This document shows, piece after piece, positions 5,062 to 62,126 of a DNA stretch of 64,000 bases. Under the pieces are notes generated by a model that worked only from the letters and a program-made list of their open reading frames with translations, was not told where the DNA came from and did not search any database. The position numbers were made by a program, and so were the translations under genes. Source of the DNA: a virus. The stretch's first letter is position 1, and every line of letters starts with the position of its first letter. The stretch is taken from the IMG/VR virus record IMGVR_UViG_3300042311_001406, positions 27,323 to 91,322 of that record; one strand, given 5' to 3'.

Positions 5062-5160
5062 GTGATTCTTCCCTTGCGTGAGCGGTTGGACTTCCCTTAT
5101 AGGATCGATGCAGATGATCACAGCCTCGGATCGGCTGTCAACACGAAACTGGAGGAAATA

Positions 5161-22978: not shown

Positions 22979-23196
22979 TCAACATGTTCAAGAAAGCCTG
23001 GTCGTGGATCGTCATCTTCTACCAGACCGCTGTCTTCCTTCGTGACCGCAACACGGAAGCTCGCCTGCGCTCTGCGCGTGAGCTCGACGACACCAACCCA
23101 GACCTGAAGACGAGGATCGACCATGAAGCCACAACCGAGCCTGGGGCGCATGCTGTTGGCGACGTCCGGCATGTTGGTCGAGAAGACAGCGTCTGA
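22975..23196 (+). CDS. small hypothetical protein
   Basis: ATGA-coupled but overlaps the next gene by 74 nt. Confidence 0.3.
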   Translation: MINMFKKAWSWIVIFYQTAVFLRDRNTEARLRSARELDDTNPDLKTRIDHEATTEPGAHAVGDVRHVGREDSV

Positions 23197-24218: not shown

Positions 24219-24929
24219 ATGCGGAACAAGTACAGGAAGGATGTCTTCGTCGTTGCCGTGGAAGGCATCATCGGAGCAGGAAAGACCACGCTCACCAAGC
24301 GCTTGCGCGATGAGCTTCATCTGCATGAAGTGCCGGAGCCGGTTGAAGACAACCCGTTCCTCGAAAACTTCTACAAGGACCAAAAGAAGTGGGCCTTCCC
24401 CATGCAGATGTGGATGGTGCAGCGTCGAGCGGAGTCGATTGCTGACGCCGTCGAAAGTCACAAGAACATCATCACGGACCGCAGCCTGGTGGGAGACATG
24501 GTCTTCGCCAAGATGCACAAAGACAACGGAAACATCGACGCCGAGATGTGGCCCGTCTACCGCGACACCTGGAGCATGATGAACCGCTTGCTGGCACCCG
24601 TGCCAGACGTCATCGTCTTCCTGGATGTGAACCCCAGCACCGCGTTCAAACGCATGCACAACCGAGGGAGACAGTCCGAAGTCGACGGCGTCACACTGTC
24701 GTATCTTCAGGATCTCTGTGCCACATACCGCTCCACCATCGAGAAGTTGGGTAGCAACTTCAACGGGACGGAGTCATTCCGTCATACGCGCATCGAATGC
24801 CTCAAAGGAGACACTGATCACGCCGTGATCGTCGACATCGTCAAGCGACACATGGCCAACAAGACCGCCGCTTTCTCGAACGCCGCCGCCGCCAACGAGT
24901 ACAACAACGACAACGAGGTCAAGCTGTGA
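24219..24929 (+). CDS. deoxynucleoside kinase
   Basis: VEGIIGAGKTT P-loop, EPV, DRS, RMHNRGRQSE lid. Confidence 0.9.
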   Translation: MRNKYRKDVFVVAVEGIIGAGKTTLTKRLRDELHLHEVPEPVEDNPFLENFYKDQKKWAFPMQMWMVQRRAESIADAVESHKNIITDRSLVGDMVFAKMHKDNGNIDAEMWPVYRDTWSMMNRLLAPVPDVIVFLDVNPSTAFKRMHNRGRQSEVDGVTLSYLQDLCATYRSTIEKLGSNFNGTESFRHTRIECLKGDTDHAVIVDIVKRHMANKTAAFSNAAAANEYNNDNEVKL

Positions 24930-27900: not shown

Positions 27901-28627
27901 CAACTGCAAGCAGAGCCAGCCGCTCAGCACCTCGAAGACGACGGACAAGGGCAGCGCCACCGTCATCCTTGAGTCGGCTCCAGCGACGTCGATGTCTTAC
28001 GACGACATGACGATCTGCAAGTTGGAAGCGCAGATCAAAGACCTGAAGTCGATCATTGGCAGCCTGCGACGTGGAGAGCGTGAGCGCCTGTCGACGTCGC
28101 ACATGGGCCACATCCACAAATTCACCATTCAGGGGATGAGTGGCCACTTGACGGTCGGCTTCTACGACGATGGCCGCATCGGCGAAGTCTTCGTCGAGAT
28201 GAGCAAGGAAGGCAGCACCGTCGGTGGCTTCCTGGACGCCTGGAGCAAGGCATTCTCGCTCATGCTGCAGTACGGCGCTCCGCTGACTGAAGTCCTGCAG
28301 AAGTTCGAGGGCAGCCGCTTCGAGCCATCTGGCTTCACGCTCAACGAGAACATCCGCACCTGCACATCGGTGATCGACTACGTCAGCCGCTACATGAAGA
28401 TGCTGAGCTCAAGCGCACCGAAGGCGGCTCCGATGCTCGACAGTGCCCCTGGCGACCATCAGGTTGAGGAAGGTGAAGACGTCGACGATTCGCACGTCCC
28501 GTCAAACACGCAGAAGTTCGTCGACACCAATGGTCGCATCTGTTCGTCATGCGGAAGCAGCAACCTGCGTCAAAGCGGCGCCTGCTTCGTTTGCAATGAG
28601 TGTGGCTCAAGCACGGGGTGTGGCTGA
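24926..28627 (+). CDS. nrdJ: class II (B12-dependent) ribonucleotide reductase with intein
   Basis: FNSPVWFN, QCSACF, GGKTRRAA, NPC|SEY, SCNLAS, APTGTI, SGAISKTVN; C-terminal TSCPD-like domain and Zn ribbon. Confidence 0.92.
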   Translation: MKNTVTIPSADSIDYTLSIAGDKIECRVHSIDIVNFNKRDVAIEGSGFKQKDVEAPDFWSDTAVRIVANKYFRGHDSDRENSVKQLVARVVGSIVDFLDSKDRFASATDKHSFKSVLTHLLYVQAFAFNSPVWFNLGTEVSPQCSACFILGVDDNIESILKWINDESLVFRRGSGAGVNISRIRHKNARLQGGGHASGPLSFANGANYMAGAIKSGGKTRRAAKMLVMNDNHPDVFDFIDTKSIAERVAKALIAGGFSSKFNAEGGAYELAPWQNANNSVSLYDRFLNAVLVDGDHDLVDHKGAVVRTIKARELWRKMGEAAWESGDPGLHFRDTMNRFNTVAEDGEIEASNPCCFTGETLVDTSEGKIRIDELVARSQRGEDLPMAWAFDLESSLPVLRRIVKAWKAGDATKLVRVTTDRGISVLCTPEHRWLKRNGAWVEAQHLKAGDSLRKTARWVNKDRSGRHCLNMRGTESAPNGTVWQNRYMWEQAYGPIPDGMEVHHKNGDPTDDRLSNFELIPVSDHRSEHSAGDENPRFIDVEDHVLVEAWDAVAAGRKRGSGVTPTTWNAHINSNGLKGHLPLAASPTNGGRIQGMPWAEFESKINELRSSVNDRVVSVEFIANDTATSVFDIEVEGVHNFSVTSPGAVHSVVVHNSEYLFINNTSCNLASFNLVRYMIRDGLKRVFNWRAFQRDGLAMYLCLDAIVDISSYPTPEIDETTRKYRTLGAGYANIGGMLMRMGIPYDSDEGRHMIAVITSALQGTMVCNSMKAAEAWGTFDRYEANRDHVDKVILSHYNAQVGLTYNKDDVVWNPWQHYEQTVLRDNTKIARVRNAQFTVVAPTGTIGFMMDVDTTGIEPDFSLVKYKEMVGGGYMTLVNTAMSEGLEVLGYDEETRKAIEAHVTTTGGVVEGAPGLKPEHYGVFDCAVAAFGGTRFIRPEAHIEAMAEAQPFLSGAISKTVNMPESSTVDDILDIYMKSWKLGLKAVAVYRDNCKQSQPLSTSKTTDKGSATVILESAPATSMSYDDMTICKLEAQIKDLKSIIGSLRRGERERLSTSHMGHIHKFTIQGMSGHLTVGFYDDGRIGEVFVEMSKEGSTVGGFLDAWSKAFSLMLQYGAPLTEVLQKFEGSRFEPSGFTLNENIRTCTSVIDYVSRYMKMLSSSAPKAAPMLDSAPGDHQVEEGEDVDDSHVPSNTQKFVDTNGRICSSCGSSNLRQSGACFVCNECGSSTGCG
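25988..26893 (+). mobile_element. intein (302 aa) with an HNH-type endonuclease domain
   Basis: N-terminal CFTGETLV, block B TPEH, HHKNGDPTDDRLSN, block F VFDIEVEGVHNF, C-terminal VHN|S. Confidence 0.9.
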
Positions 28628-42105: not shown

Positions 42106-42942
42106 ATGTCGTTCAACATTGGCGCAGCAATCCTTTCTGGTCTCACCGAGAAGCTGGCGATCAGCGATGCACTTGTGAATCGCTTGGGGTCCGGACGTGC
42201 CAAAAACGTATTCAACGGCAGCGATGCTGATGGAAAGAAACTGTTGCGATCGATTGAGCTCAGTGACGCCAGAGAACTCAGACAGAAACGGAAAGCAGCA
42301 GCACAAGCTGCTGTGATGCATCACGCGCCAACGAAAGTGACTGTCACCACTGCAACCAAGAGCACTGCAGCCGCCGCGAAGGCTCGTGGCTTTCGTGGGC
42401 CATCGCTGAAGCAGATGGGGGTCGGTGCCGGCATCGCCGCAGGCGTTGGTGCGGCGCTCTACGCTCGGCACCGTCGAGAGCGTGAAAAGACGGCAGCCAT
42501 CCCAGCGGCCCGGTTCAAAGAACTCCGCGGCCAGATCGCTGGTCGCCTGGCGCACCGGGTGGACATGGTGAGCAACCGCTTGCTGGATGCACACGGCTCG
42601 GACCTGTTGCGCCTCCGCGCTCAGAAGCGTCGTCTCGGTGGGATGCTGGGCCGTGCGCAGATGCACGAGACGAAGGCTGGGCTCCGAAGTGCTGGCGTGA
42701 ACACCAACGTGCGCAACAGTGCAGCATCGCTGTCGGCTGAGCGCTCCGCGGTGACGGGCTCGACCGCCAATGCCGCCACCAAAATCACCCGTCGTCCGGC
42801 ACCACCTGCAGGCGGCGGCATGGCGAACGATGCCACCAAGGTCGTGAAGACGCCGCCGCTGCCGGCTGCTACAGGTGGAGCTGACCACACGCGCACTGGG
42901 CTCGGGTGGCACCTCCAGAAGCCGAAGGTTCGCGCTGCATGA
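42106..42942 (+). CDS. basic K-x-A modular protein with a glycine zipper
   Basis: EKLAI, EKTAA; GVGAGIAAGVGAAL. Confidence 0.65.
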   Translation: MSFNIGAAILSGLTEKLAISDALVNRLGSGRAKNVFNGSDADGKKLLRSIELSDARELRQKRKAAAQAAVMHHAPTKVTVTTATKSTAAAAKARGFRGPSLKQMGVGAGIAAGVGAALYARHRREREKTAAIPAARFKELRGQIAGRLAHRVDMVSNRLLDAHGSDLLRLRAQKRRLGGMLGRAQMHETKAGLRSAGVNTNVRNSAASLSAERSAVTGSTANAATKITRRPAPPAGGGMANDATKVVKTPPLPAATGGADHTRTGLGWHLQKPKVRAA

Positions 42943-44801
42943 CGCTGCTTGGTCTCCACGACGACGATGATGACGGCGACTCAGGGATCGAGGTGGTGTC
43001 TCGTGCGCCGCTGCGATCTCTGGCTCGCAACTTCGAGTCGAAGGAGAGCCGAGAGCGTTTGCGCGACGCCTTCAACAGGGCGCGTGATGCCGCGGCTGAG
43101 GCCAAGGGTGGCGTGGCTGGCGGCATGTGGGTCGACAAGGACGGCGTGACGTGGACCACGCCGTCCAACATGATCGCCAACCGCATCTACATCAAGCGAG
43201 ACACGCCGTATTCGTTCATCGATCGACCGTGCATGAAGACGGTGTTTGATGATGATCACCGCTTCATTCTGATGAAGACGGCTCGTCAGGTGAGCAAAAG
43301 CACGACGCTGGCTGGCCGTCTGATGCTCAACACCGAGGTCTTGGCGCCGTACGCCGCCCTGTTCCTGAGCCCCAGCTACGACCAGACCTCGAAGTTCAGT
43401 CACCAGCGTCTTGGCCCCACGATCATGCAGAGCCCGCACCTCAAGGCTCGCATGAGCCGAGAGATGCTGAACAACGTCCTGGAGAAAGAGTTCATCGACG
43501 GCAGCCGCATCTATCTGAGCTACGCCAAGAGCGACGCGGATCGCGCACGTGGTATCTCGGTCGACGAAATCGACTTCGATGAGGTGCAGGACATGCACCT
43601 CAGCGCCATCGAGCCGGTCGTCCAGGAGTCGCTGTTCACCAGCGTGCACAAGAAGCGGTTCTACAGCGGCACACCGAAGTCGTTCAGCAACGGCATTGAA
43701 GGGCTGTGGCGCAACAGCGACCAGCGTGAGTGGATGGTGGCCTGCCGTCACCATTCTCCGGCCTATCACCAGAAGTTGACGATCAAGAACATCGGCAACG
43801 AAGGCCCAGTGTGTGTCAAGTGCGGGAACCTGCTCAACACGCTCGACGGCCTCTGGGTGCAGACCGTCACCGTGCTGCCTGACGGGAAGAAGCCAGAGAC
43901 GCACGGCTACCACCTGCCGCAGATCATCTTCCCAACGAACAAGGTCGTTCTCGGGAAGAAGCCGAATGGCAAAGACATCAAGGGCTTCCTGGACTGGGAT
44001 GACCTGCTGCTCCGCCTCTCGAACCCGAACGCTGAGATCGCGACGATTCAGAACGAAATCTTTGGTGAGAGTGCCGACAGCGCCAGCAAACCCATCAGCG
44101 AGGAGAAGCTGCGGTCACTGTGCCACAAAGACCGGCCCATGCCCACGGAGTACCCGGCCTGGGCGCAGGGCACGTACACCTTCGCTGGCGTCGACTGGGG
44201 CATGGGTCTCGGCTCATCGACGGTGCTTTCGATTGGCCAGTTCGACCCTCGCGACCCGTCGAAGTTCCGCATCATCTTCTGCAAGCGATGGGACGGTGGA
44301 GACGCCGACCCAGAAATCTGCGTGCCGTTGATCTTGCAGTATTGCCGCTGGTTCCGCGTCAAGCGCCTGCACGCCGACTGGGGTGGCGGCGCTGGCATCA
44401 ACAGCCGCATCATGGATGAACTCGGCCCAGAGTTCATCACGACGAACTACTGGTCGACGAACATGAGCGCCAAGATGGCGAACTACGACGACCGCCACAA
44501 CCGCTTCGTTTTGAACCGGAGCATGACGATCACGAAGTTCTTCCAAGCGCTGCGTCGAGATTCGATTCAGATCGCCTTCCGATGGGAGGACTACCGTGAG
44601 TTCTCCGTCGACATCCTCAACGTGTTCCGTGAGGAGCGCAAGAACGAGGACTACTACTACGATCACCCGCCAGGCACACAGGATGACGCGATGCACTCGC
44701 ACATCTACTGCTGGCTGGTGGCCTGCTGGCACCGCATCAACGAGAACTTCGTCGAGGACGCTCGTATCACTGGCAGTACGCACAACCCGTTGATGGTGTG
44801 A
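42939..44801 (+). CDS. terL: terminase large subunit (GpA-like)
   Basis: ARQVSKST Walker A, RARG, FDEVQD Walker B, SGTP, AGVDWG nuclease, QDDAMHS. Confidence 0.9.
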   Translation: MTLLGLHDDDDDGDSGIEVVSRAPLRSLARNFESKESRERLRDAFNRARDAAAEAKGGVAGGMWVDKDGVTWTTPSNMIANRIYIKRDTPYSFIDRPCMKTVFDDDHRFILMKTARQVSKSTTLAGRLMLNTEVLAPYAALFLSPSYDQTSKFSHQRLGPTIMQSPHLKARMSREMLNNVLEKEFIDGSRIYLSYAKSDADRARGISVDEIDFDEVQDMHLSAIEPVVQESLFTSVHKKRFYSGTPKSFSNGIEGLWRNSDQREWMVACRHHSPAYHQKLTIKNIGNEGPVCVKCGNLLNTLDGLWVQTVTVLPDGKKPETHGYHLPQIIFPTNKVVLGKKPNGKDIKGFLDWDDLLLRLSNPNAEIATIQNEIFGESADSASKPISEEKLRSLCHKDRPMPTEYPAWAQGTYTFAGVDWGMGLGSSTVLSIGQFDPRDPSKFRIIFCKRWDGGDADPEICVPLILQYCRWFRVKRLHADWGGGAGINSRIMDELGPEFITTNYWSTNMSAKMANYDDRHNRFVLNRSMTITKFFQALRRDSIQIAFRWEDYREFSVDILNVFREERKNEDYYYDHPPGTQDDAMHSHIYCWLVACWHRINENFVEDARITGSTHNPLMV

Positions 44802-50885: not shown

Positions 50886-51739
50886 TACGACTCCGAATCA
50901 GGAAGGAGATAGGTCTCGGGAACGGTGTCGCTGCGTTCCTGCTCTTGAATCTGCTGCAGAGTGGCGATGGTCTGCGACGGGTACGAGACGCGCGTCATCA
51001 TCTTGGGCAGGTCGCTCTGCTTCTTCTCGATCTTCTTGGCACGCTGCATCTGCGACGACTGCATGGCCATCTTGGCCCAAGTCACAGCGAACTTGTCCTG
51101 ACCAGGCGTGTCGTCGTTGACTGCCTTCATGAACTTCATGTAGCTGGCGACCTGGATGCTTCTGACGATGTCGTCGGTACTGAGTTCACTGTCATCAGGA
51201 AGAATACCGGCTTCCCACGCGGCCGCCGCTGGCTGCTGGGTGATCGGGACGAAGTCGTGCGGGACTTCTCGCTCGATGCGGCCGAGGGTGTAGTAGTTCC
51301 TGAAGTCGATCGACGTGAGCGTCTTTGTGTCCCAGAAGCAGTCTCTGAAGAGTCTGATGGACTCCTCGGTGAGCTTGGCGTTTGCTCGGAGATTGAGGAC
51401 AGTCGCGATGTGGTGCAGAGCCATTCGCTCAATGAGGAAGCGTTCGGCCAATGCTCGAAGCGGCGCCGTTTCCACGATCGAGTAACAACGATCAAGATCT
51501 TCGGAGCCTTGTGCCTCGTCGAAGATCTCCACGTCGCAATGTTGCCGCCACTGAGCGCTCTCCACAGCCCCGTAAGCATTGGTCATCTGGCCTTGGGTGC
51601 AGGTTCTGACGATCTCCTCAAGGTCTTCAAGACGAGGTCGCACAAATCCAAGGTCAGCGACGTGACCTTGGATTTGCTTGGCTGACTCACCTTCAAGAGC
51701 CAGCCAGCGCAGGTACCGGTGATACGGGTAGCGGTTCAC
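50885..51739 (-). CDS. hypothetical protein
   Basis: 284 aa, GTG start with GGAG, coupled on both sides. Confidence 0.65.
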   Translation of the reverse strand: MNRYPYHRYLRWLALEGESAKQIQGHVADLGFVRPRLEDLEEIVRTCTQGQMTNAYGAVESAQWRQHCDVEIFDEAQGSEDLDRCYSIVETAPLRALAERFLIERMALHHIATVLNLRANAKLTEESIRLFRDCFWDTKTLTSIDFRNYYTLGRIEREVPHDFVPITQQPAAAAWEAGILPDDSELSTDDIVRSIQVASYMKFMKAVNDDTPGQDKFAVTWAKMAMQSSQMQRAKKIEKKQSDLPKMMTRVSYPSQTIATLQQIQEQERSDTVPETYLLPDSES

Positions 51740-54108
51740 ACGTCTCCGTGTGCCTTTTCCTTGCGGTACACGTAGTCGGACTTCAGCAGGCGCAACTGAT
51801 CACAGGTGCGTGCGATGCCCTCCATGGCTTCCTTGACGGAAGCTTCACGGACGTGTTCGAGGCCGAGGCGGGTGGCGACCAGAAGCTTGGCGAGGTCGTT
51901 GCCGACTTTCTCGAACGTGTCGAGGTTGTCGACGAACATTCGCATGTTCTCGGTGCTCAGGAAGTTGAGGCTGAGGATGCTGTTGACGGTCTCTTCGTTC
52001 TTGGTCTCCTGCGCTGCCTTCATCAGGCCAGGCGTCACGATCTGCTTGGTCGCGGCCGCAACGTTGCGAGCGAGTGGGCTGTCAATCACCAGGTCGGCAG
52101 TGGCCGTCTTTTCGGTCTCGGTGATCTCGCCGTGACCCTGTGGGGCATGCAGACCTGCGATCAGGATGCCGTCAGGGTTCTCGGCGGTGACCTGTGCCAC
52201 CTTCTCGATGTCGACGAGGTCGTCGGCATTGGTGATGCCCATGCCAACCAGCAGCTCGAAGCAGCTGGTATCGGTGAGGCCATTCAGGCCGGCACCGCGC
52301 ATCGACACCGTCCAGTCGTTGTCGCCAAGGCGCTGCACGCGGACGTCGGAAGTCGCCTCAGCGGCGACCTTGGTGAGGTCGACCTGGTGGCCAGCAGCCG
52401 CGATGGGCTTGCTGAACTCGATCCACTGCGCGTTCTCGGGGATGTAGACGGCGAGGTCGCCGGCTTTGCGCATGACCGGGTTCAACGTGCTGGCGCTGCT
52501 CACTGGGATCGGCGAGTTGACGGCACGGGTCGGGATGAAGTTGACCTTCACGCCCGTGTGCTCGTCGACGCACGAGATCATCATCGTTGCCCGGTTCGGC
52601 TCGTTCAGGCTGGCGATGCTGGTGACGTTGCGAACACGCAACGGCGTCGACGCCACAGCTCGGTTGCCAATCATGATGACCAGGCAGCCGAGGCGTCCGG
52701 TCTTGGGGTCAGTCGTGCGCCAACCGTTCAGGCTGTCACCCATCGGCGTACCGAAGAAGCGCTCGCTGTAGGCGAAGCGACCGTCGCCGGTGACCGCGAG
52801 CTTGAGCTTCGTCCCACCACCGTTGGCTGCGAACACCGATTGGATGACGCCAGCCGGCACCGTCATGCCGTTGCCGCGGAGCGCCACCGAGAACAGGCCC
52901 TGTCGCGAAATCTCGGCCATGCTGCTGCTGGGTGGGCGGCGGAAGCTCCACGACGTCTGGCCGATGTTCTCGGTGGCGACGTAGAGACCCTTCGTCTCCA
53001 GCTTCTTCATGGCCGCGTCGAAGTTGGGGCCGAGCAAGTCTTCGAGTTCCTTGCGCGACTTGACGACCTGTTCTGCCGATCCTGGGAACTTCACGGTGAC
53101 CGCGTCGGTCAGCATGTCGCGACGCACGATCATGATGTTGGGTGCCTTGGTGTGCGCCTTGGCGTCGACGGTTCCGCGCGAGCGCAGGATGAAGTCGAGG
53201 CTCGCGATCGACTCGCCGTGCAGCATCATCGGGTTGTCGACGACGATGCGACGGAACTGTTCCACGTCGTTGTCGCCCATGACGCCAGCCACCTTCTTGA
53301 GGAGGTCGGCAGCCGTCGCGACCTTGGTGATGGCGCGGTACTGGTCCTCGACGCCGAGGCCTTTGCGGGCGACGGCGTGGGCGCCGCCGACCAGGGCGCC
53401 AATGCTGCCGCCACGGGTGACGGCGCGCACGAGAGCCTGGGCGCGGTTCTTGTTGGTCACCTTCTTGCCGCTGGCCTGCGCCTGGCGGTCCATGTTCTCC
53501 AGCTCACGGGTGGCCTGCAGGCCGGTGCCGGTGATACCACCCAAGATGGCACCACGAGCCACACCTTTGGCGGCGGCACTCGCTGCGCTGCCGGTCTTGG
53601 CGAAAGGAGCGCTGCCCGCTTGGGGGGTGAACTCCAGCGGCGAAACGTCGCCGGTCATCTCGCCGACGTACATGTTGCCGCCGCGGACCATGCGCTTCTG
53701 CTCTTGGCCGACAGGCGTACCCATCGGCAGCGAGAGCAATGCCTGCTTGATCGACGTGGGCGTCAGGGGGCGGATGGTGCCCTTGTGCTCGTAGACGTCG
53801 AACGGCTTCATCTCAGGCTCGTCGCCCATGCGCGACTTCGAGATGATGAAGGGCAGGTTGACGCCGGTCTCACCGATGATGACGCTGCCGACCGCGGCAC
53901 CCTTGCTCAGGTCGGTGCGATCGAAGTGAATGTCGAGCTCGTTGAGATTCTCGATGTACGGAAGTTCTCGGGCGACGTTCTGGATGATCTCTTCTTCCCA
54001 CATCCGTGGATCGGAAGAGAGCCGAGCACTGGCCGTCTTCTCCGAGAAGAGATCATCGACTTCGTCGCGCTGGGACTTGTTGATGAACAGGGGCATCCGC
54101 GTCGTCAT
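51736..54108 (-). CDS. large K-x-A-containing putative head/core protein
   Basis: 790 aa; EKTAS, TKVAT, KKVAG, TKVAA, EKVAQ, EKTAT; internal glycine-zipper module. Confidence 0.7.
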   Translation of the reverse strand: MTTRMPLFINKSQRDEVDDLFSEKTASARLSSDPRMWEEEIIQNVARELPYIENLNELDIHFDRTDLSKGAAVGSVIIGETGVNLPFIISKSRMGDEPEMKPFDVYEHKGTIRPLTPTSIKQALLSLPMGTPVGQEQKRMVRGGNMYVGEMTGDVSPLEFTPQAGSAPFAKTGSAASAAAKGVARGAILGGITGTGLQATRELENMDRQAQASGKKVTNKNRAQALVRAVTRGGSIGALVGGAHAVARKGLGVEDQYRAITKVATAADLLKKVAGVMGDNDVEQFRRIVVDNPMMLHGESIASLDFILRSRGTVDAKAHTKAPNIMIVRRDMLTDAVTVKFPGSAEQVVKSRKELEDLLGPNFDAAMKKLETKGLYVATENIGQTSWSFRRPPSSSMAEISRQGLFSVALRGNGMTVPAGVIQSVFAANGGGTKLKLAVTGDGRFAYSERFFGTPMGDSLNGWRTTDPKTGRLGCLVIMIGNRAVASTPLRVRNVTSIASLNEPNRATMMISCVDEHTGVKVNFIPTRAVNSPIPVSSASTLNPVMRKAGDLAVYIPENAQWIEFSKPIAAAGHQVDLTKVAAEATSDVRVQRLGDNDWTVSMRGAGLNGLTDTSCFELLVGMGITNADDLVDIEKVAQVTAENPDGILIAGLHAPQGHGEITETEKTATADLVIDSPLARNVAAATKQIVTPGLMKAAQETKNEETVNSILSLNFLSTENMRMFVDNLDTFEKVGNDLAKLLVATRLGLEHVREASVKEAMEGIARTCDQLRLLKSDYVYRKEKAHGDV

Positions 54109-54154
54109 CTTTGACCTCTTGTGTAGAGACTACCGTTGTACGGTAACACCATCA

Positions 54155-55087
54155 TCAGCAGTTTTGGAGCTTTGTGAGCAGCAACTGTACCTGCTCCAAA
54201 GGCCCAAGAACAGGCGCCAGCTTCTCGCGGATGTCGTTCATCGCCGTTGGCAAGTCGGACACGTTGGACAGGTCAGGGAAGTCCAGCAGCGTGCCCTGCT
54301 GCAGGCCGTCGATGACGCCGATGAGCTCATCTCTGGCCTCGTCACTGGGAAGCGGAATCAGTCCGTTCTTGATCGCGAACTTGAGCAGGTTGGCGACAGA
54401 GGCCGGCATGCCCTGGCTGATTGGCTGAGACATGGTTGAGACGTTCTGCAGGATCGGAATCAGGTTCGACAGTGGTCCGGCAGCGTGTTGCATGGCGTCA
54501 GCAACAGCCTCACGAGCGCACGCCAGCTTGGCGTCGATAACAGGGTCCCCAGTGTCTGCTGGGATTTTTGACATCTGATCGCTCAGGTCGTTGAGCTTCG
54601 CCGTCACGCCAGACATCACCACCGTTGAGGCGTTGAGCGTGTCCTTCACCGTCGCCAGCATCGAGAGATGCGGGATCAGGCCGATGAGCTTGACACCTTT
54701 CAGGATGACAGCGAGTGCATCGGAGATGAGCTTCCCTGGGTCAGGGACACCAGTGTCACCGGCTGGCTTGCCTGGGATCGGTGTGTCCACGTCGCTGTTG
54801 ATGATCGTTGGCACCGGGAAAACGGTCCCCAGTACCGGATTGATGATGCTGAGGGTTCCCAGCAGCGTCAACATGAAGGTCATCAAGGCCATCACGAACC
54901 CGACGATGTCGAATGCTGGCTGCATTGCGCCAAGTGCTGGAGCTGCTTGCGACAACAGCGAGTTCACAGGGTCCAGCGCGTTCGGGAATTGCTGGCTGCT
55001 GTTTGGCTGGCTCTGGATCTTGATACCGCCTGGAAGCGTGATGGAGATTTGCGGAGGGGGAGGAGCGATACGGATGCAGCCGCCCAT
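54155..55087 (-). CDS. hypothetical helical protein with hydrophobic segments
   Basis: TGATG coupling to the spike-like gene. Confidence 0.65.
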   Translation of the reverse strand: MGGCIRIAPPPPQISITLPGGIKIQSQPNSSQQFPNALDPVNSLLSQAAPALGAMQPAFDIVGFVMALMTFMLTLLGTLSIINPVLGTVFPVPTIINSDVDTPIPGKPAGDTGVPDPGKLISDALAVILKGVKLIGLIPHLSMLATVKDTLNASTVVMSGVTAKLNDLSDQMSKIPADTGDPVIDAKLACAREAVADAMQHAAGPLSNLIPILQNVSTMSQPISQGMPASVANLLKFAIKNGLIPLPSDEARDELIGVIDGLQQGTLLDFPDLSNVSDLPTAMNDIREKLAPVLGPLEQVQLLLTKLQNC

Positions 55088-55869
55088 CAGATTGGGTCCT
55101 TGATTGCCGCCACACGACGGTCGTTGAGGATGAGGTTTGGTGCGTTGATGGAGAGTTCAGCGTAGGCGTTGATCTCCATGACGTTGCCATTGATCTTGGC
55201 GATGCCGTCTTTGTCGACGCTGATGTCAAGCGCCGGCCTGGGATCTGTCTTCTTGCGTGTGACGCGAACCTGTACCGGGATGTCGCCAGTACCCACACGA
55301 ATGCCAACCCTGAAACCATCCGCCTCTGGATCAGTTTTCACCCGGTACTCGGCTGCATACTCGACGACATCTTTCCCTTTTTCTCGGGTCCACGCCACGT
55401 GGCCGCCAGGACCCTTCAAGTTCCAGCTGTCGAAGATGTTCTCGATCACGCCCAGCGGGGAGTAGACCGTGTTGGCCAGGGCGCCGCTGCCGACGATGAC
55501 AGTGCCGCCACGCAGAGCCAGAATCTTGGCCTCCGTGCCGTCTTCACTCAGCACGCGGAACCCCATGCTGCCCGGTGGGAATTTCTGCTTTGAGAGTCGC
55601 CCTTTTCCCTCGCCGAGTGCACTGTCGAACGGCATCTTGAACCCGATCACGGTTTCAAGCCCGCCAGCGCCCGACGACAGGATGACGCATTCGGCCTTCA
55701 CCTCGGGGACAAAGTCGAAGCCGCCACCGTTGGCCGCGTTGATGTAGGGCAGCAGCCAGGAGACTTTTCTGAACTTTCTCCCGCTCCGGGAGATGGCATG
55801 CAGCGTCTTGGTGTCCTCTTGAACACTGGTAACGCGACACTCGTAGATTCGAGCCTCGATGCCTGGCAT
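55087..55869 (-). CDS. baseplate central spike / gpV-gp5 OB-fold protein
   Basis: Start ATG 55869 (GGAGAG); WLLP...GGGFDFVPEV...VIG motif and a beta-helix-like tail. Confidence 0.6.
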   Translation of the reverse strand: MPGIEARIYECRVTSVQEDTKTLHAISRSGRKFRKVSWLLPYINAANGGGFDFVPEVKAECVILSSGAGGLETVIGFKMPFDSALGEGKGRLSKQKFPPGSMGFRVLSEDGTEAKILALRGGTVIVGSGALANTVYSPLGVIENIFDSWNLKGPGGHVAWTREKGKDVVEYAAEYRVKTDPEADGFRVGIRVGTGDIPVQVRVTRKKTDPRPALDISVDKDGIAKINGNVMEINAYAELSINAPNLILNDRRVAAIKDPI

Positions 55870-55898
55870 TGTTCTCTCCGTAACGTCTCGATAGAATA
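55869..55898. promoter_or_regulatory. putative bidirectional promoter
   Basis: TTGTTC-N17-TAGAAT on +; overlapping TATTCT on -; 58-bp divergent gap. Confidence 0.45.
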
Positions 55899-55927
55899 GA
55901 CGCGAAATCCAGACCAAGGACAACAAA

Positions 55928-57466
55928 ATGCGCACGAAGGCCGAACTCGAATCGTTCGCCAAGCAGGCTTCCGCAAAGTTCATCAACAACGGCGTCAGCC
56001 TTGATGAAGCTGTGTTCGAGGTCGCTTCGGTGAACTCTCTCAATGACGAGCAGACCAAGCGCGTCATCGGGTACACCAACACGTTCGTCAACAACGAACT
56101 CGTGAAGCAGGCAAAAGCTCACGGCAAGGACCCGTCGATCCACTTCCCCATGGCCAGCGCTGAAGGCGTGAAAACGGCGTCCAAGAAGATCGGCGGCCAC
56201 GCCAAGACGGCCTCGAAGAAGTCGGACGCTGAGTTCGACATCTTTGGCTCCGATCCGGTCGAGAAAGTGGCTTCGATGTTCGAGGTTCCAGAAGCCGAAA
56301 TGTCCAACGAAGAGGTGATGACGAAGGTGGCTGGCGCCGCTTCGACCGCGCCCACCCTCTCACACCTCGACGAAAACGTCCTCACCGAGGCCTACATCAA
56401 GGGCACGACGCTGCAGGGCCACTACTTCCTGCCGTCGCAGATGGAAGCCGCGGCCCGCAACGTCCAGACGACGATGGAGTTCGCGAAGCAGGCACAGGCT
56501 GGTCTCGACCACGAGATCGAGCTTGGTCTCGCCGCGCTCAAAGACACGGTGCACGATCTGATGCTGGATGGCACCACGATCGCCAGCCTGAAGCACATCG
56601 CCGCCACCGAGAACATGTCGAAGACCGCTTCGGCCGTGATCCACGACGTCAACATCGAGCAGGGCATCGACGTCGAGCGCATGGGCGAAGGCAAGAACCA
56701 GGTCGAGGCTGGCGCCATCATCGACCCGCGTCACCCCTTCATCCGTGACCTGCGCAAGGTGGCCGCCCTCCGCCTCAAGCAGGAGAAGACGGCACAGGTT
56801 GTCGCCCAGCTTGAAGACGCGCACGCGCGTGCCCAGGCGGACGTCAAGGAGTGCCGTCGCCTGCCGAAGACCGCGATGTTCATGCCGACCAAGGCCGTTG
56901 GCTCGAAGGCGGGCCTCGCGCTCAACGCGGTTGGCGCTGGCTTCTCGGCGTCCGACGCCACGAAGAAGCTGAAGGCGGCGCAGCGCACCCCGGCCGTGGG
57001 CGCTCAGAAGATGGCCAGCGTGCTGGGCTCGGCGGCGGCTGCTGTGTTGCCAGCGGTGGCTGTCGGCACGGGCATTGCGCTGGCTGGCCGTGGCATCGAC
57101 GCGGGTCTGACGCAGATCGGCAAGGCGTGGAAGTCGCAGAAGCATCAGAAGATGTTCGCTGAGCTCGCCAAGAAGGACCCCGAGTTCCTGACCAATCCGC
57201 GCGCCCGCGAGGCTTTCGACATCATCGAGAAGTACGCGCCGGCCATCCTCAAGAGCCCTGTCGCCACCCGCGACTACATCAAGGGCCAGCTCCAGTTCCC
57301 TCGCAGCAGCATGGAGCTGATTCGCCACCTTGCCGACTTCCAGAAGACCTACGCCCAGGGCAACATGGGCGGCGGACCTGGCATGGGGTCGATGGTGGCT
57401 GGCGAGTTCAACAGCCAGCTCAAGTCACAGGCGGCTGATGAACGTCGTCGCCTCTCTGGCGGCTGA
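55928..57466 (+). CDS. K-x-A-rich head (inner core) protein
   Basis: About 13 K-x-A sites in 512 aa; hydrophobic Gly/Ala modules; first gene of the head operon. Confidence 0.7.
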   Translation: MRTKAELESFAKQASAKFINNGVSLDEAVFEVASVNSLNDEQTKRVIGYTNTFVNNELVKQAKAHGKDPSIHFPMASAEGVKTASKKIGGHAKTASKKSDAEFDIFGSDPVEKVASMFEVPEAEMSNEEVMTKVAGAASTAPTLSHLDENVLTEAYIKGTTLQGHYFLPSQMEAAARNVQTTMEFAKQAQAGLDHEIELGLAALKDTVHDLMLDGTTIASLKHIAATENMSKTASAVIHDVNIEQGIDVERMGEGKNQVEAGAIIDPRHPFIRDLRKVAALRLKQEKTAQVVAQLEDAHARAQADVKECRRLPKTAMFMPTKAVGSKAGLALNAVGAGFSASDATKKLKAAQRTPAVGAQKMASVLGSAAAAVLPAVAVGTGIALAGRGIDAGLTQIGKAWKSQKHQKMFAELAKKDPEFLTNPRAREAFDIIEKYAPAILKSPVATRDYIKGQLQFPRSSMELIRHLADFQKTYAQGNMGGGPGMGSMVAGEFNSQLKSQAADERRRLSGG

Positions 57467-57517
57467 TCTCCATCAGCACACCAAGCAGCATCAAAACTCA
57501 GGACATCGGGAGACGGC

Positions 57518-59110
57518 GTGAGCGATCAACACAACTTCTACAAGAACATCGACAGCGGCGAAGACACCAATTTCGGGCCGTCGATGTCTTGGATTGATGT
57601 CGACTCGAAGTTCGCCTTCGAGAAGATCGCTCGCGCCCACTCCATCCACCAGAGCTACATCCCTGAGACGTTGCAGCAGACGATCGAAAGCATCCGCGGC
57701 AAGCTGCCCAAGGACAAGGTCGCGTTCTACAACCGTGCCCTCGGGAGCTTTGAGAGCTACGGCCTGAACAAGAACGGCGACGGCTGGTTCCGTGAAGAGC
57801 TGATGCGGAAGCACGCGACCTTTGTGTCGGACGCCGCGTACTTCCGTGACCACCTCAACAAGATCGCCATCCACCCGCACTTTGGTCGCCCAATCGCCAG
57901 CGCGTTCAACGAGAAGACCGACATGGTCGATCTCATCATCCTGGCCGATTTCGACAAAGTCGCTGAAAACGACATCCAGATGCTGGAGCGCGGCGGCCGC
58001 GTCTTCACCAGCATGGGCTGCCGCGTCAAGTTTGACGTCTGCACGATTTGCGGCCACCAGGCGCCAGCCCCTGATCACTATTGCGAGCACGTCAGGAAGC
58101 ATGCTCGTCACCCATATGGCATGGGCCAGGTGCTGGCTGACGGCCGCGTCTGTGGCGTCATGAACCCTGATCCGATCTTCTTCGACATCTCACGTCTCGA
58201 CGCCAATCCGGCTTTCGTGGGCAGCGAGAATCTGATGAAGGTCGCCGCTGCCATGGCCGGTGGCCGCGGCCGTCGCACCATGGTCCAGGTCAAAAGCGAA
58301 CGCTCCGTCAGGCCAGCGACCGCCGTCAAGTCAAGCCACGGTTGCGGCACCACCAAGAAGGCCGAAGAGAAGCAGGCTGACATGGTCAAGACCCTGCCGG
58401 CGACGACGGAAGCTGCTGTCGTTGGTGACCGCGTGATCGCAGCCCACGCTGCAGCCGCGCCCCGCCTTCCTGTGGCCGCCCTCATCAAGAAGGCTGGCTC
58501 GATGACATCGGCGCTCAAGGGCTCACTGGCTCTCGGCGTCATCTGGTCGCCTGACGAGTTCCGTGAAGGCGTGAAGATCGCCAGCGGCAAAGACCCAGGG
58601 CCTCAGTCGTGGCCAAGCCGCGTGAAGCTTGCTTCGGGTGCCTCGGCACTCAGCGCAAGCTCTGTGGCCGCATGGGGCGCGACGCCACTCGTTGACCTCA
58701 CTGATGAGCTGGCCAGCGTCGCTGAAGATCGAAGCCTGCTGCAGCCTCTGCTTTTCAACCGCTGCCAGCATCTGAAGGTCGCTCAGAATTCTGGTGCAGG
58801 CGAGAAGCAGTCCTTGTTGCCGAACGCAGATCCGAGCTATTCTCTGTACCGCGCGCTGTGCGTGCGCGGTCTTGAGGGATCGTTTTCTGGGATCGACACG
58901 GAGAAAATCGCGGACACGATGGTCCGCACCACGTCGAAGATGAGCAAAGAACTTGCTCTCGGACTGTGGACGAAAGAATCAGATTGTGGTGCTCTTGAAA
59001 AGAAGGCAAACGCCAGCAATACTGGCCCCGCACTTCTCATGACGGGCTCCATGATGGAGAATCTTGGGGCGGAAGCCCTTGATCAAATGGCTCGAAACAC
59101 GCTGACCTGA
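57518..59110 (+). CDS. prohead maturation protease (serine; HK97/assemblin-like fold)
   Basis: NKNGD, FRDHLN (His), TSMGC (Ser), CTICG..CEH Zn insert, FFDIS; upstream of scaffold and capsid genes. Confidence 0.8.
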   Translation: MSDQHNFYKNIDSGEDTNFGPSMSWIDVDSKFAFEKIARAHSIHQSYIPETLQQTIESIRGKLPKDKVAFYNRALGSFESYGLNKNGDGWFREELMRKHATFVSDAAYFRDHLNKIAIHPHFGRPIASAFNEKTDMVDLIILADFDKVAENDIQMLERGGRVFTSMGCRVKFDVCTICGHQAPAPDHYCEHVRKHARHPYGMGQVLADGRVCGVMNPDPIFFDISRLDANPAFVGSENLMKVAAAMAGGRGRRTMVQVKSERSVRPATAVKSSHGCGTTKKAEEKQADMVKTLPATTEAAVVGDRVIAAHAAAAPRLPVAALIKKAGSMTSALKGSLALGVIWSPDEFREGVKIASGKDPGPQSWPSRVKLASGASALSASSVAAWGATPLVDLTDELASVAEDRSLLQPLLFNRCQHLKVAQNSGAGEKQSLLPNADPSYSLYRALCVRGLEGSFSGIDTEKIADTMVRTTSKMSKELALGLWTKESDCGALEKKANASNTGPALLMTGSMMENLGAEALDQMARNTLT

Positions 59111-59142
59111 TCACCGAGTCAGCCACCAAGGAGACAGAGAAC

Positions 59143-60222
59143 ATGTTCAACAACGCCAACCAGACCTTCGCCGACCTGCTCGCCGCCACCAACGGCGTCG
59201 GCGGTGGCACCCAGGACAAGACCGCCAGCGAAACCAACACCGGTTCCGCTTCGCCCTTCGCCAAGGGCTTCTTCGCGAAGGTCGCCAGCGGCGATGCTGA
59301 AGCGCTTGCTGAACTCGAAGCCTACGGTGAGAGCCGTGCGGCCGACGGTCTCAGCGGTGACGAAGTCGCCGCCGAGATCAACCAGTTCGAGGCCGCCGAG
59401 ATCGAAGCCGGTGGCGAAGGCAGCGGCGACGCCGGCACCGATGACGGTGAAGGCGCCGGCGAAGGCGGTGAAGGCGGCGCGGACGACGAGTTCGAGGCCG
59501 AGAAGACCGCGGCGATGATCGAGGCCAGCAACCAGGCGGTTGCCGATGTCCTCGCCAACAGCGAGCTCGCTGCTGCTCTCGGCATCGACCAGGAGAAGAT
59601 CGCCGAATTCATCATCGCTGAAGAGGCGGGCGCCGCCTACTTCGAGACCAGCCGCCGCGTCAACGAGATGATCGAGAAGATCGCCTCGACCATGATCCCG
59701 TCGCAGGAAGACGTGGCTGCCGCCACCGAGTTCCTCAAGACGGCCGGCGTGGACGTCAGCTCGGTCGTGGCCCAGGCCGCCGAGTTCGAGAAGCAGGCTT
59801 CGGCCACCACGACCGAATCGACGGCCGAGAAGGTCGCCCGTGAAGCCGCCGAGCGCGAACAGCTCATGTTCGCGGCGATGGCCACCCTCCGCGATGCCGG
59901 CTTCGACATCGAGAAGGTCGCCGCCGACGCGGAGAGCAAGAAGAAGATGTCCGGCAAGGCCAAGGCTGCGCTCGGCATCGGTGCTGGTGTTGGCGCGGCT
60001 GCGCTCGGCCTCGCGGCTGGCAACAAGGCGCTCGGTGGTCGGTTCTCGACGCGTGCGGGCATGGACTCGGCGAAGGCCGGCGTCCGCGCTGGTGCCGACA
60101 TGTTCAAGTCGACCAAGGGTCAGGGCTTGAAGGACCGCGCTCGCGCGGCCGGTGTCATGGCCAAGGACAAAGCGACGCGCCAAGCCAAGGGCGACAAGTT
60201 CTACAACGGCGTCTTCCGCTGA
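59143..60222 (+). CDS. scaffold-like acidic protein with a basic glycine-zipper tail
   Basis: DKTAS, AKVAS, EKTAA, EKIAE, EKIAS, LKTAG, EKQAS, EKVAR, EKVAA. Confidence 0.7.
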   Translation: MFNNANQTFADLLAATNGVGGGTQDKTASETNTGSASPFAKGFFAKVASGDAEALAELEAYGESRAADGLSGDEVAAEINQFEAAEIEAGGEGSGDAGTDDGEGAGEGGEGGADDEFEAEKTAAMIEASNQAVADVLANSELAAALGIDQEKIAEFIIAEEAGAAYFETSRRVNEMIEKIASTMIPSQEDVAAATEFLKTAGVDVSSVVAQAAEFEKQASATTTESTAEKVAREAAEREQLMFAAMATLRDAGFDIEKVAADAESKKKMSGKAKAALGIGAGVGAAALGLAAGNKALGGRFSTRAGMDSAKAGVRAGADMFKSTKGQGLKDRARAAGVMAKDKATRQAKGDKFYNGVFR

Positions 60223-60253
60223 GTTCTGATCGACCATTCCACACCGATCGGAG

Positions 60254-60631
60254 ATGACGACCATGAGCAAAGCAGCAGAATTGGCCAAGACCGCCGCCGA
60301 GAAGTCCGCCCAGACCGCAGAAGTGGCGACTCTTCGTGCCAAGGTTGCGGCTTTTGAGAAGGAGAAGGAGGCCGAAAACCTCCTTCTCTCTCTCGACATC
60401 CGTCACTCGATGTCCCCCGTCAGCGTCAACGATTTCATCGAGAAGCGAGCCCAGATCGCCAAGATGAAGGACATCGAGTCGGCACACGTCGCCGTCAAGA
60501 TGGCGCAGACGCAATCGTTTGATGCCTGCATCGGTGATCCCGTTGAACGGAACACCGATGACGGCGCCAGGCCTGGCGACGCGGTGACGCGTGCCGACAA
60601 AGATCTCAACGACTTCATCTTCAGCAGCTGA
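60254..60631 (+). CDS. small scaffold-like protein
   Basis: Coiled coil with about 7 K-x-A sites; C-terminal DLNDFIFSS amphipathic tip. Confidence 0.65.
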   Translation: MTTMSKAAELAKTAAEKSAQTAEVATLRAKVAAFEKEKEAENLLLSLDIRHSMSPVSVNDFIEKRAQIAKMKDIESAHVAVKMAQTQSFDACIGDPVERNTDDGARPGDAVTRADKDLNDFIFSS

Positions 60632-60673
60632 GCCTGCTACCAACCGTCAACCGCTCGACAGGAGAACACGCAC

Positions 60674-61120
60674 ATGGCTCTCAAGATCATCAACGACGCC
60701 GCCTTCCGTGACCGCAAGCCGGCGAAGCTTCCCCCGAAGACCACCCTCTCGGACGCCACCCTCAAGACCTGGAAGGGCGGCATGGTCATCCGTGAACAGG
60801 CTGACGGCTCGCACGTGCTCGCCGACGGCGCAGCCTTCGTGCCCGACCCGAAGTTCCTGCTCATCGGTGGCGACGCGTCGGACGTCCTGGCCGCGCGCTC
60901 GATCGGCTACGTCGAAGGCCCCGACACCTTCAAGATCAACAACGAGGCCTTCGTTGGCAACCCCGTGGCCGGCGATGAGCTCGCCATCGGCACCGGTGGC
61001 AACGTCGGCAAGCTCGTCGTCGTGGCCTCGACCACCCCGGCGCTGCTCAGCGCCAAGGTCGCGAACGTGACCAAGGCGGCCGACGCTGATGGCTTCATCA
61101 CCATCAAGGTCGTTCGCTGA
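60674..61120 (+). CDS. head decoration/cement protein (putative)
   Basis: 148 aa, beta-rich, AGDEL.IG..G.L motif; immediately upstream of the capsid gene. Confidence 0.6.
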   Translation: MALKIINDAAFRDRKPAKLPPKTTLSDATLKTWKGGMVIREQADGSHVLADGAAFVPDPKFLLIGGDASDVLAARSIGYVEGPDTFKINNEAFVGNPVAGDELAIGTGGNVGKLVVVASTTPALLSAKVANVTKAADADGFITIKVVR

Positions 61121-61131
61121 GCGAACAAGCT

Positions 61132-61168
61132 GAGCGGCGGCCCTCAAAGTCGCCGCTCGGTTGTTGTT
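61132..61168 (+). terminator. stem-loop upstream of the capsid gene (attenuator or mRNA stabiliser)
   Basis: GAGCGGCGGC-CCTCAAA-GTCGCCGCTC followed by GGTTGTTGTT. Confidence 0.5.
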
Positions 61169-61208
61169 GACCACCACCTCAATTCATCTCGCACAGGGAG
61201 AACGATAC

Positions 61209-62126
61209 ATGTCCATCGCCAACCAGCTCTTCGTCGAAAAGCTCCGCCAGCCCGGCATGGAGAAGCTTGCCGCTGACCGCCTCAACGGCTTCGTCCGTGA
61301 AACCCTCTATGAGGGCAGCGTCTTCGCGAAGCTCATCCCGCCCCAGCCGGTCAGCCCGCGTGACCTCGATCGTCTGCCTGCCGAGGAAAACGGTGGTCGC
61401 GCCGGCCTGCGCAAGGTCATCGACAAGGAATTCACGGACGTCTCGGCCGTGGCCCTCGACTTCCGCACCTCGACGCCGAAGCAGTACATCGAGTCCAGCA
61501 CCTTCAACATCAACTTCCACAAGATCGCGACGCCGACGTTCGAGATCACGGAAGACGAGCTGAAGGCGAAGGAACAGCCGATCCAGTCGATCCTCAAGAA
61601 CGCGATGACCGCGCACATCGATCGCGTGATCGATGAAACGGCCCGCAACGCCATGGTGGAAGCCGTCACCGGCACGTCGCGCGATGCGACGACCAGCGAC
61701 GAATACATCATGCCGCGCAACATCGTGAAGCTCATCAACTTGATCGAGTCCAGCGGCGCTGGCTCGGCCAAGAAGAAGCTGAAGGTCGAGACCCTGCTCA
61801 TGACGCAGGGCATGTGGAACCAGCTCTACACCTGGACCCAGTCCGACATCAGCTCGGTCATCGGCGAGAAATACTGGGCCGACGGGTTCACGTACGAGAC
61901 GCTGAACAAGAAGCGCGTCATCGTCACCAACAAGGACGACATGTTCCCGACGAACGAAGTCTGGGCCTTCGCCAGCCCCGAGTTCCTCGGCGTCCACTAC
62001 AACCTGAACGACGACCGCTTCGAGATCCAGCGCGACTTCGATCTCCTGCGCTTCAAGGCGTGGAAGACCCACGGCGCTGGCTTCGGCAACACCAGCGGCA
62101 TCGCCCGCATGACCTTCGGCGTCTGA
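61209..62126 (+). CDS. major capsid protein (HK97 fold, inferred)
   Basis: 305 aa, GGGAG RBS, extreme codon bias, position after protease/scaffold/decoration, strong terminator; FASPEFLG and C-terminal G.GN..GIA. Confidence 0.8.
   Translation: MSIANQLFVEKLRQPGMEKLAADRLNGFVRETLYEGSVFAKLIPPQPVSPRDLDRLPAEENGGRAGLRKVIDKEFTDVSAVALDFRTSTPKQYIESSTFNINFHKIATPTFEITEDELKAKEQPIQSILKNAMTAHIDRVIDETARNAMVEAVTGTSRDATTSDEYIMPRNIVKLINLIESSGAGSAKKKLKVETLLMTQGMWNQLYTWTQSDISSVIGEKYWADGFTYETLNKKRVIVTNKDDMFPTNEVWAFASPEFLGVHYNLNDDRFEIQRDFDLLRFKAWKTHGAGFGNTSGIARMTFGV

Follow-up and report, generated by a model that had tools for sequence, protein, structure and literature searches.

Lys-x-Ala as the probable cleavage motif of a gp21-like capsid-maturation protease in a viral contig and its relatives

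The sequence analyzed here is a stretch of 64,000 nucleotides (the window) from the IMG/VR virus record IMGVR_UViG_3300042311_001406 (positions 27,323 to 91,322 of that record), in which a head module located at 51.7–63 kb encodes a 530 amino acid (aa) protein with a T4 gp21/herpesvirus assemblin-type fold (nt. 57518–59110, forward strand), a HK97-type major capsid protein, and several neighbouring proteins rich in the tripeptide Lys-x-Ala (K-x-A). We propose that the phage's own capsid-maturation protease, the 530-aa protein, recognizes and cuts at K-x-A, and assign this reading a probability of roughly 0.7. The full motif probably takes the form Φ(P5)-E(P4)-K(P3)-T/V/I(P2)-A(P1)|S/A/G(P1′), with the cut (|) placed by analogy with proteases of the same fold.

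The excess of K-x-A was assessed for each protein against 2000 whole-protein shuffles. The protease carries 16 copies against 4.05 expected (z 6.5), the 512-aa protein (nt. 55928–57466, forward strand) 14 against 6.7, the 790-aa protein (nt. 51736–54108, reverse strand) 11 against 4.4, the 359-aa protein (nt. 59143–60222, forward strand) 10 against ~5.3, and the 125-aa protein (nt. 60254–60631, forward strand) 7 against ~1.8, while the 310-aa protein (nt. 54155–55087, reverse strand) is an uncertain member with a marginal excess (4 against 1.2, p 0.027). Together with a 239-aa protein encoded at the opposite end of the contig (contig positions 554–1273; 7 against 2.0), these six head-module proteins form the final carrier set, with a total of 69 K-x-A against 25.5 expected. 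The rest of the proteome (70-odd proteins) holds 104 against 103.1. A preliminary description of the window, made from the sequence alone, had proposed this enrichment and named composition-shuffled controls as its check, and the shuffles bear it out. The counts it gave were largely accurate (~13 in the 512-aa protein, 10 in the 359-aa protein, 7 in the 125-aa protein, and about nine outside the catalytic core of the protease, where 9 of the 16 lie downstream of the catalytic domain); the 790-aa protein is motif-rich as described, with 11 copies rather than 6–7. The description had also called the motif sparse in baseplate, ribonucleotide reductase and terminase proteins. None of these is enriched, and neither is the RNA polymerase nor the large upstream and tail proteins; all sit at expectation, and the terminase, reductase, RNA polymerase and upstream proteins are not depleted.

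The excess is confined to one residue spacing in one orientation. Shuffling within local windows of 10, 15 or 30 residues left the z-score of the seven-protein set at 8.5–9.2, and in the same set K-A, K-xx-A, K-xxx-A, A-x-K, R-x-A, K-x-S and K-x-G all occur at expectation. In a blind scan of 400 residue pairs at gaps of 0–3, K-x-A was the top pair at z 10.3 and the runner-up reached 4.8, in a set consisting of the first eight candidate proteins (88 against 35.9), which had been selected by K-x-A excess and included a 378-aa low-complexity protein. This 378-aa protein (nt. 4348–5484, reverse strand) was ruled out as a carrier, its excess being compositional and of the AKKA type; it has a PHROG 11941 core flanked by low-complexity AKKA/KAAK tails of the histone-H1 type. 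A 568-aa protein (nt. 21272–22978) is not enriched by count (8 against 6.3). The codon usage of Lys and Ala within the motif equals that outside it, and the middle codons are diverse; the signal therefore lies at the protein level, and a DNA-level motif was ruled out.

As a positive control, the same blind scan was applied to gp67, gp68, gp21 and gp22 of T4 phage, where I-x-E (15 against 5.9) and L-x-E (16 against 7.0), the experimentally known cleavage motif (PMC5694885), emerged as the top two pairs, and gp21 was itself enriched for its motif. A verified cleavage code thus leaves the same statistical signature as seen here, only weaker.

The protease was modelled with AlphaFold2 from 48 sequences, yielding a confident region at residues 21–233, a disordered linker at residues 234–302 (predicted local distance difference test score, pLDDT, <50), and a helical C-terminal domain. 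The catalytic domain (residues 21–229, nt. 57578–58204; pLDDT mostly >88) was assigned to the gp21/assemblin fold by structural alignment, in which VIA-align returned T4 gp21 as the best match (5jbl_A; Z 9.5, root-mean-square deviation 3.1, 139/165 residues), with the proteases of varicella-zoster virus (1vzv_A; Z 6.9) and human cytomegalovirus (8j3s_A; Z 4.8) also clearly above unrelated rows. The Foldseek match to T4 gp21 was weak (probability 0.4). At the sequence level, the protease matched no Pfam family at E ≤ 0.01 (S77, S78, U35 and S21 included) and nothing in a profile search against PDB sequences, and its one PHROG match was to PHROG 2774 ('unknown function', E 4.9e-6). A word-indexed search identified 82 protease relatives, of which 48 are of the full-length class (P0001–P0048, 35–57% identity, including two intein-bearing and two shorter proteins; the inteins are in P0012 and P0031, from other samples). 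Across these 48 homologues, H112, S165, M166, D173, C175, C178 and C189 are invariant, G167 is conserved in at least 90%, and His191 is nearly invariant. The serine of the T-S-M-G sequence (nt. 58007–58018), singled out in the preliminary description, is thus Ser165, the putative catalytic residue on the basis of conservation, fold and spacing. Given the fold match and the invariant Ser165 and His112, we have assigned the gene, at the level of its modelled fold, as a capsid-maturation serine protease related to the gp21/HK97/assemblin group (MEROPS clan SH: S21, S77, S78, S80) but outside any curated sequence family. We did note an invariant Cys175-x2-Cys178...Cys189-x-His191 cluster directly after Ser165 (residues 175–191, nt. 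58040–58090), probably a zinc site added to the gp21-like fold by insertion, of which we know of no counterpart in T4 gp21. Candidates for the third catalytic residue, judged from conservation and spacing, are Glu190 or His191, which lie 25 residues after Ser165, the same spacing as between S153 and D178 in SPN3US gp245 (PMC5694885).

The position of the protease gene, in the head module and upstream of the scaffold and major capsid genes, is kept in related loci and in the phages Arash, G, Pupper and Tonenili. Distant relatives of the protease are already annotated as head maturation proteases in phage G (gp19) and Gordonia phage Pupper (gp94), and the Arash homologue, gp222, is annotated merely as a 'structural protein'.

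All 48 full-length-class homologues are enriched for K-x-A (z 3.9–7.3), and four K-x-A columns, at residues 36, 67, 241 and 463, are invariant in 44 protease sequences. The first, K36-I-A38 (nt. 57623–57631; invariant in 48 sequences), ends the N-terminal leader and is a predicted autoprocessing site; relatives display (L/F)-(V/E)-K-T-A|(S/G) at residues 26–36. K241-V-A243 (nt. 58238–58246) lies where the catalytic domain passes into the linker, and is a predicted release site on the basis of its invariance and the pLDDT profile. Column identity drops from ~0.7 to ~0.28 right after this site, where the conserved domain ends, and by analogy the site is predicted to mirror the R-site of assemblin.

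The major capsid protein (nt. 61209–62126, forward strand) was recognized through a weak match to PHROG 2522 and a tblastn match to Arash gp226, and shares 23–24% identity with the capsid proteins of Salmonella phage Arash and Vibrio phages D69, D148 and D181. We have taken ATG 61209 as the true start, given the AGGGAGA ribosome-binding site upstream and the alignment of homologue N-termini at this position, and rejected TTG 61161, the first in-frame start of the open reading frame (ORF). Residues 19–21 then read K-L-A (nt. 61263–61271), from which, on the strength of conservation in homologues, removal of a 21-residue propeptide is predicted. Of 52 non-redundant capsid homologues, with identities as low as 22%, ~47 have a K-x-A in the equivalent position, with P2 free; the exceptions carry K-V-S or K-L-G, in which P1 is still small. 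In total, the capsid leaders hold 58 K-x-A against 12.2 expected. The corresponding site in Arash reads L-V-K-E-A|G, and in phage G, R-V-A. The preliminary description had reported one K-x-A near the capsid N-terminus (M-E-K-L-A|A); the site is present, with two internal copies besides. In the capsid body past the leader, homologues from the related loci (L001–L080, described below) hold 37 K-x-A against 69.8, with ratios for K-x-A/S/G/T of ~0.4–0.55. This depletion may reflect avoidance of cleavable sites; it ranks only 19th of 284 pairs, inside the range covered by other pairs, and comes from a homologous family.

In its model, the 790-aa protein, a multi-domain member of the module, consists of several small, beta-rich domains followed by a four-helix bundle at the C-terminus. 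Its family is large (809 relatives), and 150 representatives, each <50% identical, hold 1832 K-x-A against 568 expected, the next-ranked pairs being L-x-K and I-x-K, which correspond to the P5 preference. At K24-T-A26 (nt. 54031–54039, reverse strand), the end of the conserved N-terminal leader, K24 and A26 are each kept in no fewer than 90% of 48 sequences, and the site falls in a segment with pLDDT <50. K-x-A occurs in the first 60 residues of 131 of the 150 representatives, typically as Φ-E-K-(T/V)-A|G at positions 10–25. In the model, sites 24, 262, 272, 580 and 667 lie in or border low-confidence linkers. We found no convincing structural match to this protein in the PDB, and a protein atlas was uninformative. 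An assignment as the portal was unsupported, as no Pfam or PHROG matches were found and Foldseek and VIA-align matched only the C-terminal helical bundle to generic bundles.

Motif conservation in homologues, which the preliminary description had named as a check, was examined across IMG/VR. An initial single-sequence scan of viral contigs matched nothing; a profile scan yielded at least 527 confirmed protease relatives among the 599 pattern matches listed. We kept 80 loci, on contigs of 6.6–211 kb (most 30–211 kb) with G+C contents of 33–66%. In about two dozen distinct loci, no residue pair scores higher than K-x-A in the protease homologue, and in loci lacking clear protease enrichment the downstream neighbour is enriched 3.4-fold. 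The 1453 ORFs of the 80 loci were clustered into sequence families, of which 101 have at least three members; 19 of these 101 families are K-x-A-enriched at p < 1e-3 and are mutually unrelated. All but two of the 19 have a median offset of −5 to +5 genes from the protease (the exceptions lie at −9 and −12), and many are positional scaffold analogues with no detectable mutual similarity. The capsid family (87 against 74) and families of ~619, ~543 and ~298 aa are at or below expectation. The enrichment of unrelated neighbour families indicates that the motif itself is under selection, beyond mere inheritance of sequence. Among cultured relatives, the motif is enriched in Arash (gp220, 10 against 3.0; gp223, 8 against 3.0; gp225, 7 against 1.8), more weakly in phage G (gp19, 8 against 2.4; gp21, 7 against 2.8), and weakly in the actinophages Pupper and Tonenili (15 against 8.3 and 14 against 7.4, respectively), in which no replacement motif emerged.

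The sequence context of the motif was derived from 1605 sites, drawn from 175 non-redundant K-x-A-enriched ORFs in the related loci. The resulting logo shows Leu/Phe/Met at P5, Glu (less often Val/Thr) at P4, Lys at P3, Thr/Val/Ile/Leu/Gln at P2, Ala at P1 and Ser/Ala (also Glu, Gly) at P1′, with information confined to P5–P2′ and little beyond; the profile in this genome is the same. Proteome-wide, the only proteins with at least two E-K-x-A or at least two Φ-x-K-[VTIQLM]-A-[SAGQ] are the six head-module carriers and the 239-aa protein.

The 512-, 359- and 125-aa proteins would be substrates cut at multiple sites. The 512-aa protein, predicted as such from the shuffles, is apparently, to judge from its BLAST hits among the loci, a member of the offset −2 positional family, whose 92 non-redundant members hold 630 K-x-A against 262. 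The 359-aa protein is acidic, Ala-rich and scaffold-like, with six of its ten sites in the form E-K-x-A; its gene sits between those of the protease and the capsid protein, and its positional analogues in other loci (clusters 18, 13, 11 and 54) are unrelated in sequence yet enriched. In the 125-aa protein, 7 of 11 lysines belong to a K-x-A, and analogous families of 100–146 aa at offsets +2 to +4 are 3–4-fold enriched. If every site were cut, the protease and the 512-, 359-, 125- and 239-aa proteins would be reduced to pieces of at most 50–83 residues.

We place the cut after Ala since proteases of this fold read P3 and P1 and leave P2 free, and since the preferences at P5, P3 and P1 alternate, which fits an extended bound strand. 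Precedents for such P3-x-P1 recognition, a rule for this fold (PMC5694885, PMC10052503), are L/I-x-E| in T4, S/A-x-E| in phiKZ and SPN3US, and V/L-x-A|S in assemblin. Under the proposed scheme, the protease would free itself inside the prohead at K36-I-A38 and K241-V-A243, remove the 21-residue leader of the capsid protein and the ~26-residue leader of the 790-aa protein, and chop the scaffold-like 512-, 359- and 125-aa proteins and finally itself into fragments no longer than ~85 residues that could exit the shell. This would parallel the action of T4 gp21 on gp22, gp67, gp68 and the gp23 propeptide.

Among known systems, the best structural match is T4 gp21, which shares with the system described here many sites in core/scaffold proteins and in the protease, along with one N-terminal capsid site; T4 sites of the form (L/I)-x-E occur in gp22, gp67, gp68, gp23, gp24, internal proteins and gp21 itself. 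In contrast to gp21, the present system has Ala rather than Glu at P1 and Lys rather than Leu/Ile at P3, and its protease lacks Pfam or PHROG membership by sequence, is 530 aa long, and bears a linker, a helical C-terminal domain and the Cys/His cluster by the active-site Ser. Herpesvirus assemblin (UL26/UL80; R- and M-sites, (V/L)-x-A|S) has the same fold class and an Ala|Ser cut, as predicted here, and releases itself from a C-terminal scaffold part at the R-site, which ends in Ala, as is also predicted here; some assemblins have internal, destabilizing sites (PMC4498786). It differs in having Val/Leu rather than Lys at P3, and two or three sites rather than dozens over several proteins. The large-phage head proteases phiKZ gp175 and SPN3US gp245 (MEROPS S80, (S/A/G)-x-E) act, as proposed for the present enzyme, on many head substrates and multi-site propeptides, with C-terminal autoprocessing (predicted here) and a P1′ Ser preference (PMC10052503, PMC5694885); A-x-E is, for example, the site at which SPN3US gp245 processes capsid, portal and ejection proteins, with Ser preferred at P1′ and several sites within propeptides (PMC10052503). 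Unlike the protease described here, these enzymes cut after Glu and have many ejection substrates encoded genome-wide, and no proteome-wide marking was detectable in this genome.

Several points weigh against the assignment of K-x-A as the cleavage motif of the protease. A literature search on Arash, phage G and the cluster C mycobacteriophages found no measured cleavage or mature N-terminus; the Arash virion proteome (116 proteins, near-complete coverage) was published without cleavage analysis (PMC10585845), and the multi-omics paper on phage G describes none. In the two models, ~9–10 of 27 sites fall at pLDDT <50 (where ~22% of residues lie), a weak and non-significant trend, such that a preference of the sites for disordered regions was not upheld. 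The catalytic core of the protease is itself ~5-fold enriched (209 K-x-A against 42 in 44 sequences), and to explain this excess by programmed self-destruction takes an extra assumption. Several invariant sites may simply be structural parts of core strands, as is probably the case for K67-V-A, which lies in a core strand. Finally, the scissile bond is placed after Ala rather than Lys by analogy, and the equivalence of Ser165 to the catalytic Ser of T4 gp21 is drawn from fold and spacing.

One alternative is that the head protease or prohead interior reads the motif in some other way, either as an uncut docking/retention motif or with the cut elsewhere, e.g., after Lys. Enrichment within a folded catalytic core, and in helices and strands, is odd for accessible cut sites, and the scissile bond cannot be placed from sequence alone. 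However, the P3-x-P1 architecture of the fold, with its free P2, speaks against docking or cleavage at another bond (PMC5694885, PMC10052503), the Ser/Ala/Gly at P1′ and the Ser and Gly that substitute at P1 of the capsid site fit a small S1 pocket, and the invariant site between the catalytic domain and linker resembles the R-site of assemblin (PMC4498786). We therefore regard this alternative as unlikely. Less likely still is that another enzyme reads the motif, be it a host protease, a lysine-modifying enzyme or another phage peptidase, such as the 338-aa Peptidase_C92-like protein (nt. 23123–24139, forward strand; PF05708, E 1.6e-5, below the curated cut-off). The link between motif and protease is drawn from circumstance, and this second peptidase-like gene is present; however, the motif tracks the gp21-like protease gene by position in 80 diverse loci with many hosts and G+C contents, the protease holds invariant copies at its own domain boundaries, and the C92-like gene lies outside the conserved module. 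Very improbable, and largely refuted by the local shuffles, the unrelated families and the 790-aa family, is that K-x-A carries no signal and its excess merely reflects Ala/Lys/Glu-rich helical or coiled-coil sequence or common descent: several carriers are indeed Ala-rich and helical, the homologues are not independent samples and the protein at nt. 4348–5484 does show a purely compositional excess, but only the i,i+2 spacing in one orientation is enriched, local shuffles keep z at ~9, the beta-rich 790-aa family is enriched 3.2-fold, 19 mutually unrelated families are enriched as well, and the footprint is short and asymmetric.

Cleavage by the head protease at K-x-A is a separate matter from the broader proposal in the preliminary description, which held that the motif marks proteins for packaging across the virion proteome. 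The analysis lent that proposal no support: beyond the head set, K-x-A was counted within the first 45 residues of 13 proteins (11.7 ± 3.2 expected), no shared leader was found on proteins outside the head module in this genome, and a cut site alone is no targeting signal. Two individual proteins are nevertheless of note. The 239-aa protein, in which 7 of 17 lysines belong to a K-x-A and four sites match the extended motif, is from its sequence a good candidate substrate. The description extended the motif to proteins encoded far from the head operon; for the 239-aa protein this need not hold, since its gene lies at the start of the contig and the head genes at the end, and the contig is open-ended. 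The C92-like protein, whose 25-residue N-terminal leader closes with L-V-E-K-T-A|S (residues 19–25), is a single candidate for a remote substrate or capsid-loaded enzyme, as judged by this leader.

Several head-module proteins here and in relatives carry a 15–35-residue leader ending in E-K-x-A, and in one related locus (L056) four small proteins at offsets −5, −4, −3 and +5 start with M-K-Y-F-E-K-x-A or M-S-F-E-K-T-A. These head-module leaders and the L056 paralogues recall the capsid targeting sequence (CTS) of T4; in contrast to the CTS, there is no shared leader or excess of N-terminal sites outside the head module here. We offer only tentatively, as a rather doubtful extension, that E-K-x-A might end a 'load then cut' capsid-loading leader, with the sites in the protease core serving as a built-in self-destruct after maturation; candidates for such loading would be the C92-like enzyme, the 239-aa protein and the M-K-Y-F-E-K-x-A paralogues of relatives.

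The window makes up the final 64 kb of one contig, 91,322 bp long and with a G+C content of ~60%. The contig lacks a terminal repeat, and at both ends (positions 1 and 91322) ORFs continue past the edge, indicating an open-ended fragment; a circular contig was ruled out, as there is also no coherent ORF spanning the junction. Given that relatives are 150–210 kb in size, the contig probably represents about half of the genome. Other phage genes on the contig include the large terminase (nt. 42906–44801), a primase-helicase, a SNF2 helicase, and the large subunit of a ribonucleotide reductase (nt. 24926–28627, 1233 aa), which bears an intein with a HNH endonuclease (Pfam Intein_splicing, HNH_3). 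Hardly any protein of the head module has a match in Pfam or PHROGs.

Cleavage codes read by prohead proteases are already a familiar concept, and head-protease specificities are experimentally known for a few phages (T4, phiKZ/SPN3US, HK97 and few others) and for herpesviruses. Our literature search turned up no phage head protease described as having Lys-x-Ala specificity. If true, the K-x-A code would provide a readable cleavage rule for a very large, mostly uncultured clade that includes Salmonella phage Arash and the Bacillus megaphage G, with which the mature ends of proteins could be predicted and the head-module proteins of unknown function sorted into temporary scaffolds and those retained in the virion. 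It would also mean that a gp21-type phage enzyme uses the Ala|Ser bond typical of herpesvirus assemblin, which would bear on how specificity has shifted within this ancient protease fold.

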